From: Candidatus Bathyarchaeota archaeon
GTDB taxonomy: Archaea; Thermoproteota; Bathyarchaeia; 40CM-2-53-6; RBG-13-38-9
Length of the DNA: 64,000 nt
Reading direction: 5' to 3'
Assembly (NCBI GenBank): GCA_963807605.1
Contig: CAWECG010000001.1
Location: 160,001 to 224,000 of the forward strand
Part shown: positions 1-9,805 of the stretch, piece after piece
How the letters are laid out: every line of letters starts with the position of its first letter
Position numbering within the stretch: the first letter of the stretch is position 1
Program-made: the position numbers and the translations under genes
The notes under the pieces: generated by a model
What the model was told of the DNA's origin: nothing
Databases searched by the model: none
Seen by the model: the letters and a program-made list of their open reading frames with translations, nothing else

Positions 1-419
1 TTCATGCAGTCAGATCGAGGCTCGAGAGATTGGGTGTCTCTCTCAACGAGAATCAACTTACGAGCGTCGTCCAAGCCATAAAAGAGAGACCGACCATCAG
101 CAGATTTAGAGACGCAGATATAATTGAGTTAGCCGAGCGAGTGACTGGTAAAACCCTCAAGGCTCAGGTTCCCAGCAAAGTGGAAGCTCTCTTGAGAGTA
201 AAGTGTGAATCAAACGTTTACACAACGGCGATAGCTAGGAAAATCCGGGCTCTCAAGAAAGTAACCAAGGTGTACGAGGTAACTGGAAATTACGACATCG
301 AAGCTACTATAACCGCCGATTCTACCTTCGACCTGAATGAAATCCTGGAGAGGATAAGAGAGATTGAGGGTGTCGAAGCAACCGAGACTCAACTGGTTTT
401 GAAAAAGTTTGAGACATAG
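1..419 (+). CDS. 3' part of a homocitrate/isopropylmalate synthase-family protein with C-terminal RAM (Lrp/AsnC-type) regulatory domain; 5' truncated by window edge
   Basis: Frame is open upstream of the TTG at 30 and reads HAVRSRLERLGVSLNENQL (LeuA/HCS post-catalytic subdomain); C-terminal VYEVTGNYDI...IREIEGVEATETQLVLK is a RAM fold. Confidence 0.7.
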   Translation, partial: HAVRSRLERLGVSLNENQLTSVVQAIKERPTISRFRDADIIELAERVTGKTLKAQVPSKVEALLRVKCESNVYTTAIARKIRALKKVTKVYEVTGNYDIEATITADSTFDLNEILERIREIEGVEATETQLVLKKFET

Positions 420-427
420 ACTTTCAC

Positions 428-442
428 CAATAAACTTATAGG
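428..442 (+). promoter_or_regulatory. Putative BRE/TATA promoter for the ilv leader transcript
   Basis: caataaaCTTATAgg about 50 nt upstream of the leader ATG. Confidence 0.5.
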
Positions 443-490
443 CAAATGAAAAGATTTTATGCAAGAAACCGGGCGATGAGTGAAGGCGAG

Positions 491-574
491 ATGTTACCAG
501 TGGCATATCCAAGACTCCCCCATTGCTTGAAGTTGATAGCGCTGCTCATCGTCGTTTTAGTACTTCTAGTGTAG
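491..574 (+). CDS. Putative ilv leader peptide MLPVAYPRLPHCLKLIALLIVVLVLLV (27 aa)
   Basis: ATG 491 after SD-like gaaggcgag, TAG 572-574; 12 of the last 13 codons are Leu/Ile/Val; directly upstream of ilvB. Confidence 0.75.
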   Translation: MLPVAYPRLPHCLKLIALLIVVLVLLV

Positions 575-634
575 CCTGAGCAGCGAACTCTCTGTTATTG
601 CTGCGCGGGTCGTATAAAACAACAGTAGAGATGA
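540..634 (+). promoter_or_regulatory. Putative attenuator with alternative stems 1:2, 2:3 and 3:4, the last overlapping the ilvB SD
   Basis: 540-548 cgctgctca pairs with 577-585 tgagcagcg; 580-586 pairs with 598-604; 588-596 pairs with 621-630. Confidence 0.6.
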
Positions 635-641
635 TAAAAAT

Positions 642-2321
642 TTGGTGAAATTAACCGGCGCCAAGGCGCTGGTGGAATCGCTGGAAAGAGAGAAAGTACA
701 GACTATGTTCGGCATACCAGGTGGGCAGATAATGCCTGTCTACGACGTACTACTGGACTCTAAGATCAGACACATACTCGCAAGACACGAACAATCGGCA
801 GCCCACATGGCAGATGGGTATGCAAGGGCTGGCGGAAGAACCGGAGTCTGTATGGCAACCTCTGGTCCTGGGGCCACGAATTTGGTGACTGGATTAGCTA
901 CTGCACACTTAGACTCATCACCAATAGTGGCTGTGACAGGCCAAGTTCCCACCCCACAGATAGGTCTTGATGCTTTCCAAGAGGCGGATATAATAGGCAT
1001 AGGAAGTCCAGTTACCAAATACAGCTTCCAACCGCGTAAGGCTGAGGAGATACCATTAGCCGTTAAGCAAGCCTTCTTCATAGCCCAGACAGGAAGAAAA
1101 GGTCCCGTCCTAATAGATCTACCCAGAGATGTTCAATTAGAGTCGGCTGAAATGGAATTTCCAGATAGGGTTGAGATTAGAGGATACAGAACAGTCTACA
1201 AGCCAGACCCAGAGAAAATAGGCCGAGCGGCAGAGATGTTGGTCAGAGCTGAGAGGCCGCTTATACTAGCAGGCGGAGGAGTAAGTCTAGCAAATGCTTC
1301 TAGCGGGTTACAAAAACTATCTGAATTACTCTTGGCACCGGTCGCTACCTCATTAATGGGTAAAGGTACTTTCCCAGAAGATCATCCTCTTTCCATAGGC
1401 ACCATAGGAATGCACGGTACAAGAGAAGCTAACCAGTTGATCTACGAAACTGACATCCTATTAGCTATCGGTTGCCGATTCAGTGACAGAACAACTGGAA
1501 AGGTGGATGAGTTCTGCCCAACCTCACACGTCATACATATAGACATCGATCCCACGGAGATTGGAAAGAACAAGTGTGTGAATCTCGCAATAGTAAGTGA
1601 TGCAGGCATGGCACTCGAAGAACTCTGCAGCGCATTGCGTAGGAAAATAGAATCGAGAAAGGACACCCCTTGGTCGAGGAAAGTTAAGGAAGTCAAAGAA
1701 TCCTTCGCAAACAAGATAGAAAACTCTGGCAAAGAGTTGACTCCCCCAAAGATCCTAAAAGAACTTCGTAGATTGTTGCCATTGCAGTCAATAGTCACGA
1801 CTGAAGTAGGTCAGAATCAAATGTGGGCTTCACTATACTTTAAGGCTCTGCAGCCACGCACTTTCATCACTTCAGGCGGATTTGGATGTATGGGATACGG
1901 TTTTCCCGCCTCTCTGGGTGCGAAAGTCGCCAAGCCTGACGTGCCAGTCCTGGACATAGCTGGAGACGGAAGCTTCCAGATGACAGAAAACTCTCTGGCA
2001 ACGTCGATATCTGAGAAGATACCCGTCACAGTCTTGATACTCAATAACAGGATGTTGGGAATGGTTGCACAGTGGCAGAGGCTGTTCTACAACCGGAGAT
2101 ACTCCGCCGTTCAGTTAGGTAAAGTTCCAGACTTTGCGAGACTCGCCGAGGCCTACGGAGCTGAGGGAATACGCGTCGGCTCGATCAAGGAAATGTCGGA
2201 AGCAGTCAAGAAATCCTTACGAAGCGATGTTACAACAGTCATAGACGTCCCAATCGATCCCGAAGAAAACGTATTGCCAATGGTGCCTGGAGGATACGGC
2301 CTGAAAGATGTCATAGGGTGA
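642..2321 (+). CDS. ilvB: Acetolactate synthase large subunit
   Basis: HEQSAAHMADGYAR, TSGPGATN and the ThDP motif GDGSFQM...NNRMLGMV. Confidence 0.97.
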   Translation: MVKLTGAKALVESLEREKVQTMFGIPGGQIMPVYDVLLDSKIRHILARHEQSAAHMADGYARAGGRTGVCMATSGPGATNLVTGLATAHLDSSPIVAVTGQVPTPQIGLDAFQEADIIGIGSPVTKYSFQPRKAEEIPLAVKQAFFIAQTGRKGPVLIDLPRDVQLESAEMEFPDRVEIRGYRTVYKPDPEKIGRAAEMLVRAERPLILAGGGVSLANASSGLQKLSELLLAPVATSLMGKGTFPEDHPLSIGTIGMHGTREANQLIYETDILLAIGCRFSDRTTGKVDEFCPTSHVIHIDIDPTEIGKNKCVNLAIVSDAGMALEELCSALRRKIESRKDTPWSRKVKEVKESFANKIENSGKELTPPKILKELRRLLPLQSIVTTEVGQNQMWASLYFKALQPRTFITSGGFGCMGYGFPASLGAKVAKPDVPVLDIAGDGSFQMTENSLATSISEKIPVTVLILNNRMLGMVAQWQRLFYNRRYSAVQLGKVPDFARLAEAYGAEGIRVGSIKEMSEAVKKSLRSDVTTVIDVPIDPEENVLPMVPGGYGLKDVIG

Positions 2322-2834
2322 AAATGTTGACAAAGACATTTGTAATATCCGCATTGGTTGAACATAAACCAGGTGTTCTCTATAAGGTCTCGAACATGTT
2401 CTGGCGCCGCGGCTTCAACATTGAGAGCGTATCCATTGGAACTGCGGAGAAGGAAGACTTGGCTAGAATGACGATAACTATCAAGGGTGAGGAGAAAGAT
2501 GCCGAGCAGCTTGTCGGCCAGCTTGAGAAACTGATAGATGTCCTCAAAGCTCAACGGCTCGACCCGGAAAAAGCCGTTATGAGAGAGCTTGCCCTCATCA
2601 AACTCAGCGCCGTAGACCAAAAGAATCCGCTCGGACATCTTCCATTACGTCGAGGTATTTAGGGGAAGGATAGTTGATGTCTCCCCGGAGACGGCTACCG
2701 TCGAGATAGTTGGGAGTAAGGACAAGATAGACGCGTTCATCAATCTGACGCGCAACTTCGGGTTAGTGGAGGTTGCTAGGACCGGTGAGACTGCTCTTAT
2801 AAGGGGACCAGAATCTGTAAGGATAAGCGAATAA
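2318..2834 (+). CDS. ilvN: Acetolactate synthase regulatory subunit; one apparent extra A near 2624
   Basis: ACT domain VEHKPGVL...RRGFNIESV; after a 1-nt shift reads IRSDIFHYVEVFRGRIVDVS...EVARTGETALIRG to TAA 2832-2834. Confidence 0.9.
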
Positions 2835-2847
2835 GGTGATTTAGAGT

Positions 2848-3852
2848 ATGGCAAAAGTATTTCACGACAAAGATGCAGACCTAAAGTATCTTGAAGGAAA
2901 GACCATAGCCGTTATCGGCTACGGTAACCAAGGGCACGCTCAAGCCCTGACATTCAGAGACTCGGGCATCAACGTAGTAGTAGGCTTAAGACCTGGAGGA
3001 AAATCCTGGAAATTGGCGGAGCAGGAAGGGTTCAAACCTCTAACAGTGGACGAGGCAGCGAAGAAGGCGGACATCATACACATGCTGTTTCCAGACCTTG
3101 AACAGCCGGCAGTCTACAAGAAATCCATCGAACCGAACCTCAAAGCCGGCAAGACAATCAGCTGCTCACACGCATACAATATACACTTCAAACAGATAAT
3201 CCCGCCAAAGAACGTAGACGTCATCATGGTGGCGCCGAAGAGCCCCGGCTCAAGACTCAGAGAGATCTACAAGCAAGGCTTCGGTGTACCTGCGCTAATA
3301 GCGGTCTACCAAGACGTCTCCGGCAAAGCGAAAGGGACAGTGCTTGCAATGGCCAAAGCTTTGGGCGCAACGAAGGCAGGAGTGATAGAGACGACATTCA
3401 AAGAAGAAGCCGAGACCGACATAATAGGCGAACAGATAGTCCTCGGAGGGGGATCAATGGAACTGATCAAGAAGGGCTTCGAAGTCCTCGTTGAGGCGGG
3501 CTATCAACCTGAACTCGCATACTTCGAGGTTGCTAATGAGCTGAAGCTCATGGTCGATCTTCTCTACGAAGGCGGGCTAACTAGGATGATGAAGATGATA
3601 TCCCACACGGCGCAGTACGGTAGCATGACCGTCGGTCCTCGAGTGATAGATGACCACGTGAAGGAGAACATGCGCAAGGTTGTAAAATTCGTTCAGAGCG
3701 GTGAATTCGCAAGAGAGTGGAGCGGTGACCCTCAGAAGAGCATGGAGAGACTGAACAAGCTGATGAAGGAGCTTGAGGAACACCCGGTAGAGAAGGTTGG
3801 GAAAACAATCAGACAGATGGCTGGAACCGAGAGAGGTGCCACTGCCTACTGA
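2848..3852 (+). CDS. ilvC: Ketol-acid reductoisomerase
   Basis: [29 protein letters not shown]. Confidence 0.97.
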
Positions 3853-3912
3853 CTGTGATCAATGAATTCCATACCTAGCATTCGAAAACCATGCGAAAAT
3901 CACTCTTTTTTT

Positions 3913-3929
3913 CCGAAAACTCTTTATTA
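3913..3929 (+). promoter_or_regulatory. Putative BRE/TATA promoter for leuC, preceded by a T-tract near 3906-3912
   Basis: ccgaaaacTCTTTATTA. Confidence 0.45.
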
Positions 3930-3971
3930 GAGTACGATATGATGTTTAGGCAACATGGCAGGCTATGAAAA

Positions 3972-5234
3972 TTGAACATATTCGAAAAGATCCTCGCTAG
4001 GGCATCGGAAAGAAAGGAAGTAACCCCAGGGGAGATAGTCGAAGCAAACATCGATATGGCGATGATTCACGACCTAACCGGTCCTCTAACAGTGGACTCC
4101 TTCCGTAAGATTGGCGCCGAGAAAGTATGGGACCCAAAGAAGATAGTGGTAATTTTTGACCACTTGGTTCCTCCAAGCACCGTCAGGGCTGCTACCCTCC
4201 AAAAAGGAGTCAGAGAATTCGTGAGAGAACAAGGAATCAGAAGCTTCTACGATGTCGGCCAAGGAGGGGTCTGCCACCAAGTCTTTCATGAGAAGGGATA
4301 TGCAAGACCCGGTGAACTGGTCGTCGGTGCCGACTCACACACATGCACCTACGGAGCACTAGGAGCCTTAGCTACTGGAATAGGATCAACCGAGATGGCA
4401 GCAGTCTTTACAACAGGAAGAATGTGGTTCAAAGTGCCTAAAGTCATGAAGATCCATACTAGCGGAAAATTCGAGAAAAATGTTACCTCAAAGGATCTCA
4501 TACTAAGAATAATCGGAGATATTGGAGAGGGTGGAGCAATATACAAGGGAATGGAATTCACAGGTCCAACATTCACAAACATGAGCATTGATGGAAGATT
4601 AACAGTATGTAATATGGTGGTCGAGGCAGGAGCAAAAGCAGGCATAGTCCCGCCAGACAACAAAACCCTCACTTACGTCAGAGCAAGAACAAAGAAACCA
4701 TTCAAACCATTAAAAAGTGATAAAGACGAAGCTTATGAAGAGCAGCTAGAATACGATGTTTCAAAACTAGCTGCTCAAGTAGCCTGCCCCTCATCAGTTG
4801 ATAACGTCAAACCTGCATCTGAACTGTCTAACGTAAAAGTAGACCAAGTATTCATAGGATCATGCACAAACGGACGAATCGAAGATCTCAGGTTCGCTGC
4901 ATCAATCCTGAAGGGTAAAAACCTTCACCGCGATGTCCGAATGATCGTAAGCCCCTCATCCCAACAAGTATACAGCCAATGCCTCAAAGAGGGGCTGTTC
5001 CAAATATTCATGGAAGCTGGCGCAATAGTGACCAATGCAACGTGCGGGCCCTGTCTGGGTGGACATATGGGATTACTAGCTGCAGGAGAGGTCTGTATCA
5101 GTACCTCAAATCGTAATTTCATAGGCAGAATGGGAAGCCCTCAATCCTACGTTTACCTGGCTAATCCAGCTACAGCAGCAGCATCTGGAATAGCTGGATA
5201 CATAATCGATCCAAATGAATTGAGGAGGAGATGA
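3972..5234 (+). CDS. leuC: 3-isopropylmalate dehydratase/homoaconitase large subunit
   Basis: GADSHTCTYG, FIGSCTNGR, CGPCLG, STSNRNFIGRMG. Confidence 0.93.
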   Translation: MNIFEKILARASERKEVTPGEIVEANIDMAMIHDLTGPLTVDSFRKIGAEKVWDPKKIVVIFDHLVPPSTVRAATLQKGVREFVREQGIRSFYDVGQGGVCHQVFHEKGYARPGELVVGADSHTCTYGALGALATGIGSTEMAAVFTTGRMWFKVPKVMKIHTSGKFEKNVTSKDLILRIIGDIGEGGAIYKGMEFTGPTFTNMSIDGRLTVCNMVVEAGAKAGIVPPDNKTLTYVRARTKKPFKPLKSDKDEAYEEQLEYDVSKLAAQVACPSSVDNVKPASELSNVKVDQVFIGSCTNGRIEDLRFAASILKGKNLHRDVRMIVSPSSQQVYSQCLKEGLFQIFMEAGAIVTNATCGPCLGGHMGLLAAGEVCISTSNRNFIGRMGSPQSYVYLANPATAAASGIAGYIIDPNELRRR

Positions 5235-5734
5235 AGTTGATCATTACTGCAAAAGCTGTAAAGTTTGGAAACAATATAAACACAGACGTAATCCTACCGG
5301 GTAAATATCTTGAATTGATCGATCCTAACGAACTAGGAAAACATGCATTGGAAGGACTTGATCCAACCTTCCCGCAGAGAGCAAAAGAAGGTGTAATAAT
5401 CGTAGGTGGCAAGAACTTCGGTTGCGGATCAAGCAGAGAACAAGCCCCAATAGCTCTAAAGGCGGCAGGAGTTAAATGTGTCCTCGCTGAGTCATTCGCA
5501 AGGATCTTCTATAGGAACGCGATAAACATAGGGCTGCCGGCCCTAGAATGCTCAGGCATCTCAGAAAAAACCAATGAAAGTGACTCGATCTCTATAAACT
5601 TGAAAGACGGAATTGTGGAAAACCACACTAAAGGAATCACCTTAAAGACCTCCCCTATGCCCGAGTTTATCATGAATCTATTAGAAGAAGGAGGCCTCAT
5701 CCCTCATACAAGAGGCCTGATCGGTAAAAAATGA
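5231..5734 (+). CDS. leuD: 3-isopropylmalate dehydratase small subunit
   Basis: NINTDVILP, NFGCGSSREQA, SFARIFYRN. Confidence 0.93.
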   Translation: MKLIITAKAVKFGNNINTDVILPGKYLELIDPNELGKHALEGLDPTFPQRAKEGVIIVGGKNFGCGSSREQAPIALKAAGVKCVLAESFARIFYRNAINIGLPALECSGISEKTNESDSISINLKDGIVENHTKGITLKTSPMPEFIMNLLEEGGLIPHTRGLIGKK

Positions 5735-5844
5735 GAGAACATAACATCGCACTTATACCTGGCGATGGTATTGGCCCAGAACAGACTGAAGCTGCACTGA
5801 AGGTTTTAGAAGCGCGCGCTAAGAGTATAAGAGAAAAATGCTAA
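5731..5844 (+). pseudogene. 5' remnant of the native leuB
   Basis: ATGA overlap with leuD; MREHNIALIPGDGIGPEQTEAALKVLEA then breaks at GCGCGCGCT (5812-5820). Confidence 0.85.
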
Positions 5845-5860
5845 GGAGAAAAGAAGAACG

Positions 5861-6922
5861 ATGAGAAAGAAATATAATGTCGCAGTAATTGGCGGTGACG
5901 GTACAGGTCCGGAAGTGGTAGCAGAAGGATTAAAAGTCCTGAAAGCAGCTTCGAATGAATTTGGTTTTTCGTATGATACGACAATGTTTGATTTCGGTGG
6001 TGAGCGGTACCTGAAGACCGGAAAAACAATTACCGATGAAGAACTGGAAGGATTGAAAAAGTTTGATGCGATCTATCTTGGTGCAATCGGACATCCGGAT
6101 GTAAAACCGGGAATTCTGGAGCAAGGAATTCTTCTCAAGATACGATTTGCGCTCGATCAGTATATTAATTTACGTCCGGTGAAACTCTATAATGAAGCCT
6201 TTTGTCCCTTAAAGGATAAGAAACCGGAAGATGTTGATTTCGTCGTTGTGCGTGAAAATTCCGAAGGCCTCTACAAAGGACTCGGCAGTTTTGAAAATAA
6301 AGGGACAAAAAATGAAGTAGCAATTCAAATATCGCACAATACACGGAAAGGCGTTGAACGCTGTATTCGCTATGCGTTTGAATACTGCAAGAAACGCAAC
6401 AGCAAGAAAAAGAAACTCACGCTCTGCGGAAAAACGAATGTCCTGACATATGCATGGGATCTCTGGCAGCGAACATTTGATGAAGTGAAAAAAGAATATC
6501 CAGACATTCAAACCGAGTATGTGAATGTTGATGCAACAACCATGTGGTTTGTAAAAAATCCAGAATGGTTTGATGTGATTGTTACTGATAATTTATTCGG
6601 TGATATTATCACTGATCTTGGAGCGATGGTGCAAGGCGGTATGGGTATCGCCGCGGGTGGCAATATTAATCCGGAAGGCGTTTCTATGTTTGAACCGATC
6701 GGCGGATCTGCACCAAAGTATACCGGGAAACATGTTATTAATCCGCTTGCAGGGATTTGCGCCCTTGGGATGCTTCTGGAAAATATCGGTGAAGAAAAAG
6801 CCGGCAAAGGCGTTGAGAATACAGTGATTCGTCTTGTTCAGACTAAGATAAGAAGCCTTTCAGCAGGAAAGATGGGGTATACCACCGAAGAAGTCGGCGA
6901 TATGGTTGCAGGCGGGTTATAA
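5861..6922 (+). CDS. leuB: 3-isopropylmalate dehydrogenase, compositionally foreign (bacterial-like)
   Basis: [42 protein letters not shown]; 10 of 12 Arg codons are CGN versus 5 of 5 AGR in adjacent leuD. Confidence 0.92.
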
Positions 6923-6942
6923 GAAAAACACGCGCGCGCTGT

Positions 6943-7101
6943 GAAAAGGAAGACGACACGAAGTGGACGAATGCAGCTAACGCAATTGAGGAAGCCTTCG
7001 TCAACAATCTAGAACAAGGCGTCTACACACCTGATCTTGGAGGGAAGAGTAGAACAGCGGAAGTTGGAAAAGCAATAGCACAACAAATAATCGAGGGATA
7101 A
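6943..7101 (+). pseudogene. 3' remnant of the native leuB
   Basis: EKEDDTKWTNAANAIEEAFVNNLEQGVYTPDLGGKSRTAEVGKAIAQQIIEG*; TPDLGG C-terminal motif; stop lies 2 nt before leuA. Confidence 0.85.
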
Positions 7102-7103
7102 GA

Positions 7104-8630
7104 ATGCAGCAGGAGAAGGATAGAGTCTGGATATTTGATACTACTCTAAGGGACGGCGAACAGACTCCCGGGGTATCCCTCACACCAGAGGAGAAGCTAG
7201 AGATAGCTATGAAGCTGGACGAGCTTGGCGTCGACACTATAGAGGCGGGTTTCCCAAGAGTATCACGAGGGGAAGTTGAAGCTACTAAGCTCATTTTGAA
7301 ACAAGGTCTGAAGGCCAAAGTCTGCGGACTCGCACGGACTGACCAGAAGGACATCGATGCCGCTCTCGAATGTGGAGTCCCCTACATACACGTATTCATA
7401 GCAACCTCAGAGATCCACATGAAACACAAACTGCAAATGAATAAACAACAGGTTCTAGAGGCTGCAACAAAATGGGTAGGTTACGCGAAGGATCACGGTG
7501 TGATTGTAGAATTCTCACCTGAAGACGCGACTAGAACCGAGCCCGACTTCCTCAAACAGGTCCTTAAGGTCGCTGAAGAGGCTGGAGCCGACATAATAAA
7601 CGTTCCAGACACCGTCAGCGCCGCAACACCTGAGAGGATGTTCGAGATCATAAAAGAATGCGTATCCACGGTAGCCATACCGATCAGCGTTCACTGCCAC
7701 AATGATTTCGGCTTGGCTGTAGCAAACTCACTCGCCGGAATCAGAGCAGGAGCATCGCAAGCCCATGTAACAATAAATGGGCTGGGCGAAAGAGCAGGTA
7801 ACGCCTCTCTTGAAGAGTTTGTAATGTCCCTCCATCTGCTAGAGAATAAGAAGACAAGCATCAACACCAAGCTCATCTACGAGACCTCAAGACTGGTATC
7901 CGGGCTTACAGGCGTACTTATACAGCCGAACAAGGCTATAGTTGGAGAGAATGCCTTCGGTCATGAATCCGGGATCCATACACATGGAATGCTGAAAAGT
8001 CCCTTAACATATGAACCGATCACCCCTGAGCTTGTTGGAAGAAAGAGATGGTTCCAAGCCGGAAAACATGCCGGAGGACACGGCCTTGCCGCCAAGCTTG
8101 AGGAGGACGGCCTTCATCCAACTGAAGAACAGATGAAAGAGATAACCCGTCGAGTCAAGGATATCGGCGACAGGGGAAAGATGGTGGCCGATGCAGACCT
8201 ATTCGCAATCGCCAAAGCAGTTATCGGCGGAGTTTCGGAAGAGAAGAAGATCGTTGAGTTAGAGAATCTCACAGTTGTAACAGGAACAGGCGTGGTCCCA
8301 ACATCATCGGTCAAGCTACTTATTGACGGAAAAGAGTACATATCCTCGGAGACCGGCGTTGGGCCGGTCGACGCTGCCATCAAGGCTATCCACAAGATAG
8401 TTGGTCCGCTGGCGGACGTGAGATTGAAGGAGTATCGACTGGAAGCCACAACTGGTGGGTCCGACGCTTTAGCCGAAGTCCTCATAAAGATAGAGGATAG
8501 CGCAGGCAACATTGTGTCGGCCAGAGCAGCCAGAACAGATGTGGTGACTGCAAGCGTAGAAGCAGTGATAGAAGGAATCAACAGGACACTAATCAAGAGC
8601 CGCATCAAGAGTTCCGAAGACCGGCGCTGA
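7104..8630 (+). CDS. leuA: 2-isopropylmalate synthase (citramalate synthase not excluded)
   Basis: [24 protein letters not shown] and the C-terminal regulatory domain GVGPVDA. Confidence 0.88.
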
Positions 8631-8674
8631 GCACGACACTTCAGAGCTTCCAGAAAGATAGACAGTGACTCATT

Positions 8675-9805
8675 GTGGCCAAGCACAGGATAGCACTTCT
8701 TCCGGGCGATGGTATCGGCAAAGACGTAATCGATGCAGCCAAGATAGTTCTTGACGCGACAAGACTTGACGCCGAGTATTTTCTCGGTGAGATTGGATGG
8801 GAATTCTGGAAGAACGAGGGCGACCCTTTACCCCAGAGAACTCTAAGCCTACTTAGAAGGACCGACGCCTGCTTGATGGGAGCAATAACCTCCAAACCTA
8901 AGGATGAAGCTCAACTTGAGCTAGACCCCAAGCTGAAGAACAAAGCTTACGATTACTACAGCCCAATAGTCAGGCTCCGTCAGGAGTTTAATCTCCACAC
9001 GAACATAAGACCCTGCAAGAGCTACAAAGGCAACCCACTCAACTTCAGAGAAGGAATAGACATAGTAGTATTCAGAGAGAATACCGAAGGCCTCTACAGC
9101 GGAGTTGAGTTCCACCCCCTGCCGTTGCCACTGATGCAGTGGCTAATTAAGAATCATCCGAAGATGAAGAGATTCGAATCTACGCCTCTTGATGAGATAG
9201 CAATCTCATTGAGGATAATGACTAGGAAAGCCTGCGATACGATCCTGACCAGTGCATTCGAGTACGCCAAGAAGAAAGACTACAAGACCGTCACCGTAGT
9301 CGAGAAGCCGAACGTACTGAGAGAGACAGGCGCGCTGATGCTCAGAGAAGCGCGAAGAATTGCCACGAACTACCCTTCAATTCAACTCCTAGAAGGAAAT
9401 ATAGACGCGATCTGTATGTGGCTGATAAAGAACCCCTTAGACTACTCGATAATTGTGGCTGAGAACCTTTTCGGAGACATCATCTCCGACCTCTGCGCGC
9501 AACTTGTGGGAGGCTTAGGCTTCGCGCCGAGCGCGAACGTCGGTGATAGCTATGCAATCTTTGAACCAACACATGGCTCGGCTCCGAAGTATGCGGGACA
9601 GTACAAAGTCAACCCTCTGGCAACAATCCTCTCTGCAGCTATGATGCTTGAATACCTTAGAGAAAATGCCTTGGCAGCAAGAGTTGAAAACGCAGTCGCA
9701 GCTGTCATCGCAGAAGGAAGAGTAAGAACCTACGATATGGGCGGAAGCAGCACCACCTTGGATATGGCACATGCCATATCTGACAAGCTGAGTTCAAGCT
9801 CGTAA
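8675..9805 (+). CDS. Isocitrate/isopropylmalate/homoisocitrate dehydrogenase family protein
   Basis: GDGIGKDV, FRENTEG, ENLFGDIISD, FEPTHGSAPKYAG. Confidence 0.9.
   Translation: MAKHRIALLPGDGIGKDVIDAAKIVLDATRLDAEYFLGEIGWEFWKNEGDPLPQRTLSLLRRTDACLMGAITSKPKDEAQLELDPKLKNKAYDYYSPIVRLRQEFNLHTNIRPCKSYKGNPLNFREGIDIVVFRENTEGLYSGVEFHPLPLPLMQWLIKNHPKMKRFESTPLDEIAISLRIMTRKACDTILTSAFEYAKKKDYKTVTVVEKPNVLRETGALMLREARRIATNYPSIQLLEGNIDAICMWLIKNPLDYSIIVAENLFGDIISDLCAQLVGGLGFAPSANVGDSYAIFEPTHGSAPKYAGQYKVNPLATILSAAMMLEYLRENALAARVENAVAAVIAEGRVRTYDMGGSSTTLDMAHAISDKLSSSS

Follow-up and report, generated by a model that had tools for sequence, protein, structure and literature searches.

The textbook example of how bacteria use the coupling of transcription to translation is leader-peptide attenuation. 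In the enterobacterial ivbL-ilvBN, ilvL-ilvGMEDA, and leuL-leuABCD systems, a short leader open reading frame (ORF) rich in codons for the amino acids of the pathway lies directly before the operon, charged tRNA is presumably sensed by the ribosome, and the rest of the peptide is free to vary. In Escherichia coli pyrBI, a hairpin abutting or overlapping the leader ORF is occluded sterically, with no antiterminator; the signal is polymerase speed and UTP, and close coupling gives read-through. In ermC and cat, a stalled leader ribosome directly opens a hairpin that holds the Shine-Dalgarno (SD) sequence of the regulated gene. In Corynebacterium and Mycobacterium, the Ile/Leu/Val upstream ORF (uORF) of the ilvB-II motif, IlvL, precedes ilvBNC and is closely followed by hairpins. 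This actinobacterial leader has a proven terminator, an overlapping antiterminator, and a leaderless ORF, and one upstream hairpin was proposed to time the start of translation (PMC10272879, PMC11857589, PMC13236596). Full-text searches of the literature returned such bacterial ilvB leaders and no description of leader-peptide control in archaea, and reviews on uORFs and on archaeal coupling leave it unmentioned. The subject of this study is the region upstream of ilvB in a stretch of 64,000 nucleotides from a Candidatus Bathyarchaeota archaeon (GenBank assembly GCA_963807605.1, contig CAWECG010000001.1, positions 160,001 to 224,000 of the forward strand; hereafter the window, numbered from its first nucleotide). 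Judging from its codons and their conservation, this region very probably encodes a ribosome-sensed Ile/Leu/Val leader peptide at the 5′ end of an ilvBNC-leuCDB messenger.

A first-pass annotation had proposed a bacterial-style attenuator at this locus, with a 27-codon ORF containing 10 consecutive Ile/Leu/Val codons and with four strands that pair alternatively. The ORF (491-574), which is unannotated, and its run of codons are present as described (Table 1). The stop codon of the ORF lies 67 nt 5′ of the TTG start codon of ilvB, and this TTG aligns with the ATG of relatives. The ORF had also been credited with an SD sequence of its own. SD-like sites are indeed present, namely GAGUGA (478-483), 7 nt upstream of the AUG, and GAAGG (482-486), while the match to the 3′ end of the 16S rRNA, GGAUCACCUCCU, is imperfect. 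It is likewise true that every codon for Leu (six) and for Val (four) occurs in the ORF. This is weak evidence, as usage this complete is only slightly out of the ordinary (P = 0.14 for Leu, P = 0.22 for Val) and is not shared by relatives such as L008.

Is such an ORF common before ilvB in related archaea? I sampled the GTDB order of the source genome, a group of uncultured archaea comprising 105 species genomes in ten families. The ilvB gene is present in 49 of the genomes, and the region 5′ of it was read in 48. The leader element was found in 45 of the 49, in nine of the ten families, with ilvB identities of 58-82%. The contig of L021 ends within the leader, where the 3′ arm of the hairpin described below and the SD sequence are still visible. 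No Ile/Leu/Val-tailed ORF was found 5′ of ilvB in L015. In L030, the element is absent, and the ilvB gene is just 51% identical and is preceded by another gene. In all 45 leaders, the stop codon of the short ORF lies 59-75 nt 5′ of ilvB. Recoding or frameshifting into ilvB was considered and dropped, since these distances span all three classes modulo 3.

Codon statistics were taken from 44 distinct leaders, using the 12 codons that precede the stop codon (528 residues) and counting back from it. Ile, Leu, or Val stands at codons -2, -3, and -4 in 44/44 leaders (100%) and at codon -5 in 43/44 (98%), and the commonest residues of this core are, in order, Val-Val-Ile-Leu. Further 5′, the share of Ile/Leu/Val falls to 89%, 80%, and 73%, and then to about 60% at codons -9 to -12, while codon -1 is Ile/Leu/Val in half of the leaders. 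In total, 415 residues (79%) are Ile/Leu/Val, with two Phe and no Met or Trp. U occupies codon position 2 at a frequency of 0.79, and the column entropy there is 0.76 bits, compared with 1.6 bits at positions 1 and 3. This period-3 constraint in the leader tails shows that the reading frame is kept. The N-terminal parts of the peptides are unrelated between families, whereas the tail is conserved.

Runs of at least eight Ile/Leu/Val residues occur 54 times in the six frames of the whole 2.65-Mb genome. The leader run is 10 residues long, ends exactly at the stop codon, and is more than chance would give. No other run of at least eight in the six frames of the genome precedes a gene for branched-chain amino acids, and the other runs ending at a stop codon, genome-wide, are located within genes, on the strand opposite to genes, or 5′ of unrelated ones. 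A crude genome scan for tails of His, Trp, Thr, Phe, Met, or Cys codons with a hairpin returned nothing convincing. No Rfam 15 covariance model of leaders, riboswitches, or T-boxes matched window positions 1-3000 at E-values up to 1.

The leader ORF is accompanied by two helices. The hairpin P2 is present in all 45 leaders (-14 to -33 kcal/mol). Its pairing begins within the stop codon in 33 of them and no more than 2 nt past it in the rest. P2 ends at a median of 36 nt past the stop codon; in nearly all leaders, 19-37 nt separate its 3′ end from the ilvB start. At the gene ends of the source genome, hairpins this stable (-14 kcal/mol or better) follow the stop codon in just 7% of cases. The other helix, P1, was missed by the first-pass annotation. 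It is a long-range helix of 9-15 bp between the 20 nt before the uORF start, which contain the SD region, and the first Ile/Leu/Val codons. Its 3′ strand always lies 10-38 nt before the stop codon.

A covariance model built from the closest genera (R1) was too sequence-specific, giving only weak matches in other families (E-values of 0.007-0.9). Thus, family-level permutation tests were used instead, with one representative per family and 20000 permutations of the partners. The arms of P2 differ between families. Cognate arms pair at -19.3 kcal/mol and cross-family arms at -8.6 kcal/mol, and 0 of the 20000 permutations were as low. The strands of P1 also differ by family (GACGAUGAGU/ACUCAUCGUC, CUACGAGCG/CGCUCGUAG, GAUGGGGCU/AGCCCCGUC, and GGAGCUAGAAAGGA/UCCUUUCUCUCC), with -18.7 kcal/mol for cognate and -14.1 kcal/mol for cross-family partners and 3/20000 permutations as low. 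Within the family of the source genome, P1 covaries; U-to-C in the 5′ strand goes together with A-to-G in the 3′ strand, and an Ile codon thereby becomes a Val codon. Pairing was also scored in a MAFFT alignment (A1) that was not fitted to structure and was tested against slid controls and 500 shuffles. P1 pairs in 87.5% of the cells, with U-A replaced by C-G in four sequences. P1 and P2 together pair in 77% of the cells, compared with 34-51% in the slid controls, and none of the 500 shuffles reached 77%.

The four-strand switch itself, in which the pairings 1:2, 2:3, and 3:4 exclude one another and 3:4 masks the ilvB SD sequence, is extremely improbable. All three pairings exist in the source sequence: a perfect 9-bp duplex for 1:2 (540-548/577-585), in which the tail meets the 5′ arm of P2; 7 bp with one G-U for 2:3 (580-586/598-604); and 9 bp with one bulge for 3:4 (588-596/621-630), which overlaps GAGATGA at 628-634. 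No U tract follows them, as had been stated. The pairing 2:3 is the inner stem of P2 and is conserved. In contrast, 1:2 is strong in the source sequence only (-17.5 kcal/mol, z -2.9); over the 45 leaders, its mean z is +0.45, and cognate and non-cognate strands both pair at -6.3 kcal/mol. The pairing 3:4, between the loop and the SD region, is not conserved either (z +0.28). Even among sister genera, the switch pairs in 57% of the cells, compared with 35-48% in slid controls, and 31 of 500 shuffles reach that level. In ribosome-constrained folding, the accessibility of the ilvB SD sequence does not change with ribosome position; the unpaired probability of the SD window is 0.41 in the free RNA and 0.44, 0.45, and 0.44 with ribosome masks, and thus no masking of the SD sequence appears in the model. 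When the 5′ arm of P2 is masked, no alternative hairpin emerges (mean z 0.04; 0/45 below -2). Pairing of the 3′ arm with the spacer gives no signal over the 45 leaders, and shuffled versions of the full source leader fold about as well as the leader itself (z -0.41). Among the segment pairs tested, only P1 and P2 exceed the controls, and mutually exclusive antiterminator and terminator pairings were not found. What stands of the earlier proposal is the amino-acid-sensing leader before an archaeal ilvBNC, with a conserved uORF (45/49) and a conserved 2:3 hairpin. The sensor seems secure, since it is difficult to account in another way for the codons, their graded constraint, the maintained frame, the constant location before ilvB, and a pair of helices that any ribosome translating the ORF has to open.

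Table 1. Features of the ilvB leader region and its neighbors, in window coordinates
Feature	Positions	Strand	Details or basis
HMGL-like synthase gene with C-terminal RAM domain, 3′ end	3-419		Full gene L001:19-1275; domain analysis
BRE/TATA-type promoter (B recognition element and TATA box), ccaataaac + TTATAGGC	427-443	+	Conserved cGATA-N3-TTAT(A/T)AGG element
P1, 5′ strand GGCGAUGAGU	472-481	+	Overlaps SD-like GAGUGA of the uORF and in-frame ATG 476; pairs with 544-553
Leader ORF, 27 codons + stop, ending LIALLIVVLVLLV	491-574	+	ATG 491, TAG 572-574; further in-frame ATGs at 476 and 446
Run of 10 consecutive Ile/Leu/Val codons	542-571	+	Core: codons -5 to -2 (557-568)
P1, 3′ strand GCUCAUCGUC	544-553	+	Within the Ile/Leu/Val run; pairs with 472-481
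P2 hairpin, 1 nt after the stop codon	575-609	+	Outer stem 575-578/606-609, inner stem 580-586/598-604
A-rich unstructured spacer with TATA-like UAUAAA at 614-619	610-627	+	Spacers A-rich, with no U5 tract in any of the 45 leaders
ilvB ribosome-binding site GAGAUGAU (628-635) and start codon TTG 642	628-644	+	16S 3′ end
ilvB	642-2321	+	Start codon TTG; Pfam

The promoter element cGATA-N3-TTAT(A/T)AGG lies about 117-151 nt before the uORF stop codon in related leaders (the script mis-picked it in L009-L011), and this promoter 5′ of the leader ORF is the sole conserved one. In relatives, most in-frame start codons follow the TATA box at 48-58 nt; for ATG 491, the distance is 55 nt. From the usual geometry and spacing of archaeal promoters, transcription is predicted to start near 463-468, leaving a 5′ untranslated region of about 25 nt. 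An SD-like element precedes ilvB in 40 of the 45 leaders. In the source genus group, it has a central mismatch to the 16S 3′ end (window 628-644; L129:2980-3003), and distant families have GAGGUGA. The spacer contains a TATA-like hexamer 23-28 nt 5′ of the ilvB TTG; transcription driven by it could yield a nearly leaderless ilvB messenger. Since such a hexamer is found in just 2/45 leaders, the SD-like element is kept, and the sole conserved promoter lies upstream, the sequences indicate that ilvB is most likely cotranscribed with the leader ORF.

How might this leader control the operon? In the mechanism favored here, a shortage of charged Ile, Leu, or Val tRNA would cause the ribosome to stall on the invariant core (codons -5 to -2). 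Counted from the first base of the A-site codon, a ribosome footprint extends about 11-12 nt in the 3′ direction. By this measure, a ribosome at codon -5 should abut P2, and one at codons -4 to -2 should cover its first 1-6 bases, and the base of P2 would then be unable to close. With a good supply, the ribosome would finish and leave, and P2 would close. The closed P2 would be the OFF signal, most likely by ending the transcript prematurely before ilvB through hairpin-dependent or factor-assisted termination. P1 would close once the first ribosome has passed and would silence the leader ORF on the finished messenger; thus, the decision would be taken once, during transcription. Occlusion would be steric, since no third pairing is conserved. 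Because the codons at which a ribosome would occlude P2 exactly match the invariant codons, P2 is favored as a negative element that a starved ribosome holds open.

That a closed P2 leads to premature 3′-end formation is a best guess. It is the most likely outcome since the ilvB SD sequence is not masked, P1 would limit leader translation to the first ribosome, and U5-U6 directly follows the hairpin in the relatives L012 and L072 (in L043, a U6 run lies further downstream). A further reason is hairpin-associated termination in Haloferax volcanii, where hairpins were found 5′ of 503 mapped transcript ends and one of them terminated 59% of the transcripts in vivo (PMC7237163). The supplementary tables of that study contain a high-scoring end at chromosome position 1377114 on the minus strand, 47 nt past HVO_1509, a gene whose identity is unconfirmed. 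The full chain, from the stall and the opening of P2 to the closed P2 as OFF signal and the silencing by P1, is tentative, and it is somewhat likelier to fail at one of its steps than to hold throughout.

Several points weigh against this mechanism. The spacers are A-rich, and none of the 45 contains a U5 tract. A terminator scan of window positions 1-9000 did not flag P2. In genome G000, a T5 run occurs in 9% of the 3′ flanks of long ORFs and in 6% on the opposite strand. With so few T5 runs in 3′ flanks, and with hairpins rare right after stop codons, the termination signals of the source genome are not of the oligo-T kind. Since neither T5 runs nor hairpins mark gene ends there, P2 as a terminator has no local precedent. 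Timing may be a problem as well, because a ribosome close behind the polymerase would also cover P2 while on the stop codon. The polymerase would thus have to pause just beyond P2 for a time longer than translation termination but shorter than a starved stall. If the ribosome stalled on the Ile/Leu/Val codons further 5′ (-12 to -6), P2 could still fold. In families f7 and f10, P1 is weaker. Part of the P1 signal could come from the complementarity of purine-rich SD regions to pyrimidine-rich Leu/Ile codons, although cross-family partners pair less well (-14.1 vs. -18.7 kcal/mol).

The same sensor could also work with P2 in the opposite role. Folded P2 would then mean ON when a ribosome stalls upstream, while a ribosome on the stop codon would cover the 5′ arm and leave the 3′ arm and the spacer as about 60 nt of naked RNA, on which an FttA/aCPSF1-type factor would end transcription. 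Such a geometry resembles the classical attenuators, with a ribosome at the stop codon covering "region 2". It needs neither a U tract nor a third pairing, and its sign is correct under tight coupling. FttA prefers U-rich RNA (PMC13681488), and the A-rich, U-poor spacer would be a poor substrate for it once P2 has folded. However, stalls at the most conserved codons, -2 to -5, would abut or invade P2 and give an OFF-like state in starved cells, and the constraint on these codons is left unexplained. P2 would refold once the ribosome leaves, giving the factor a short window, and the relatives with U5-U6 just after the hairpin resemble terminators. This opposite role is unlikely. I consider translational attenuation of the ermC/cat type about as improbable. 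Here, ribosomes on the last Ile/Leu/Val codons would open P2 and a weak pairing between the U-rich tail and the purine-rich spacer/SD region, thereby improving 30S access to ilvB on finished messengers. The tail, including the last six codons, does pair with the spacer/SD region in 34 of the 45 minimum-energy folds, and P2 ends at the edge of a 30S footprint, 19-37 nt 5′ of ilvB in nearly all cases. In family f2 (L118-L120, L125, and L127), AUUCUU-type last codons pair with the ilvB SD sequence AAGGAG more than in recoded controls (z +1.7 to +2.1), and the SD sequence is unpaired at 0.23-0.29 compared with 0.46-0.57 after recoding. This modeling suggests a translational component in family f2. 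On average over the 45 leaders, however, the tail forms 4.77 pairs with the SD region and Ile/Leu/Val-preserving recodings form 4.67 (mean z 0.03). The tails of L008-L011 pair with the SD region less than their recodings do, the source sequence has a z of -0.9, and the ribosome masks leave the SD window as accessible as in the free RNA. Moreover, with P1 closed, translation of the leader ORF would be shut off on mature messengers, at odds with steady-state sensing.

It is quite improbable that the leader acts on messenger lifetime, that is, that a stalled ribosome near the 5′ end or the state of P1 or P2 alters the decay or processing of the ilv mRNA and not its synthesis. Stalled leader ribosomes stabilize ermC mRNA in Bacillus, the predicted 5′ end is no more than about 20 nt away from P1, and no terminator-like tract is present 3′ of P2, but the start of P2 at the stop codon and the constraint on codons -2 to -5 are then unexplained. 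Alternatively, the ORF may be no sensor at all. It could encode a small hydrophobic membrane peptide, since the tail and the preceding residues make up 15-18 mostly hydrophobic residues, or it could be an ORF-like by-product of a structured 5′ untranslated region, with ilvB transcribed from the internal TATA-like hexamer as a nearly leaderless messenger. However, the tail is restricted to Ile/Leu/Val and is no general hydrophobic mix, as the scarcity of Phe, Met, and Trp shows. The N-terminal parts are unrelated between families, the place before ilvB is fixed, and the frame is kept with a period-3 constraint. The rarity of the hexamer and the retention of the SD-like element, already mentioned, also speak against an internal promoter. 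A non-sensor is therefore very improbable.

How does the archaeal leader compare with the described systems? It shares with the enterobacterial attenuators the short ORF rich in pathway codons directly before the operon, the ribosome as presumed sensor, and the freely varying rest of the peptide. Unlike them, it has neither the conserved 1:2/2:3/3:4 alternatives nor a hairpin-plus-U-tract terminator. Its regulatory codons reach the stop codon, where the hairpin starts, and the partner of the codon-run strand lies upstream, in the ribosome-binding region of the leader itself. The host is an archaeon, with a TATA/BRE promoter, an archaeal polymerase, and archaeal termination factors. The leader resembles the actinobacterial IlvL in having an Ile/Leu/Val uORF before ilvBNC with a hairpin closely after it, whereas neither a terminator with an overlapping antiterminator nor a leaderless ORF is seen. 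The steric occlusion proposed here, without an antiterminator, is the feature in common with pyrBI, but the signal must be Ile/Leu/Val-tRNA and the sign must be reversed. As in ermC and cat, a stalled ribosome would open the hairpin directly; in contrast to them, the ilvB SD sequence lies outside P2 and is predicted to be accessible. The type of control is known from bacteria, while its anatomy and its domain, the Archaea, are new.

The genes after the leader are, in order, ilvB-ilvN-ilvC-leuC-leuD-leuB (Pfam, window positions 1-7000). The closest named relatives of the IlvB protein come from metagenome-assembled genomes of Bathyarchaeia (61-64% identity); a look-up of the identical protein sequence gave no record. 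The gene 5′ of the leader has the domain order HMGL-like, HCS_D2, and RAM (an Lrp/AsnC ligand-binding domain). By this domain order, it is a synthase of the LeuA/CimA/homocitrate-synthase type with an allosteric tail, an enzyme and not a regulator; thus, the idea that a neighboring Lrp/AsnC-domain gene encodes an Lrp-type regulator was rejected. P2 as the terminator of this upstream gene was also rejected, since the conserved promoter comes only after the end of the gene (419) and other families have different neighbors upstream.

Ile/Leu/Val-rich uORFs were also found before ilvB in DHVE2, Archaeoglobus/Archaeoglobaceae, Methanomassiliicoccales, and Thermoplasmata-type metagenome-assembled genomes (L043, L072, L086, L055, L094, L079, and L096). 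P1 and the invariance of codons -2 to -5 pertain to the order of the source genome. L072 has a small hairpin and a U6 run between the stop codon and the SD sequence. In L079 and L096, the Ile/Leu/Val run lies in the middle of the peptide and is followed by a conserved LGV.VDLRI tail. Methanosarcina (L045-L047) has a conserved element of a different kind about 60-200 nt 5′ of ilvB, with the blocks catccatatataacatgat and gtgagtgtgag and without Ile/Leu/Val codons. It is a speculative possibility, and on present reckoning an unlikely one, that archaea have their own form of ribosome-mediated attenuation, widespread before ilvB across archaeal phyla, in which a hairpin abutting the stop codon is combined with a leader-silencing helix, and a stall on the Val-Val-Ile-Leu core decides whether the hairpin closes and whether the transcript ends, by hairpin-dependent or FttA-assisted termination.

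For genome annotation, the leader ORF is a reading frame that has been passed over, and leaders of this design also precede ilvB in other archaeal phyla. The leader bears on how amino-acid operons are controlled in lineages without recognized regulators. As a concrete element that can be mutated, the conserved two-helix Ile/Leu/Val leader would allow one to ask whether archaeal ribosomes talk to the polymerase or to a termination factor.

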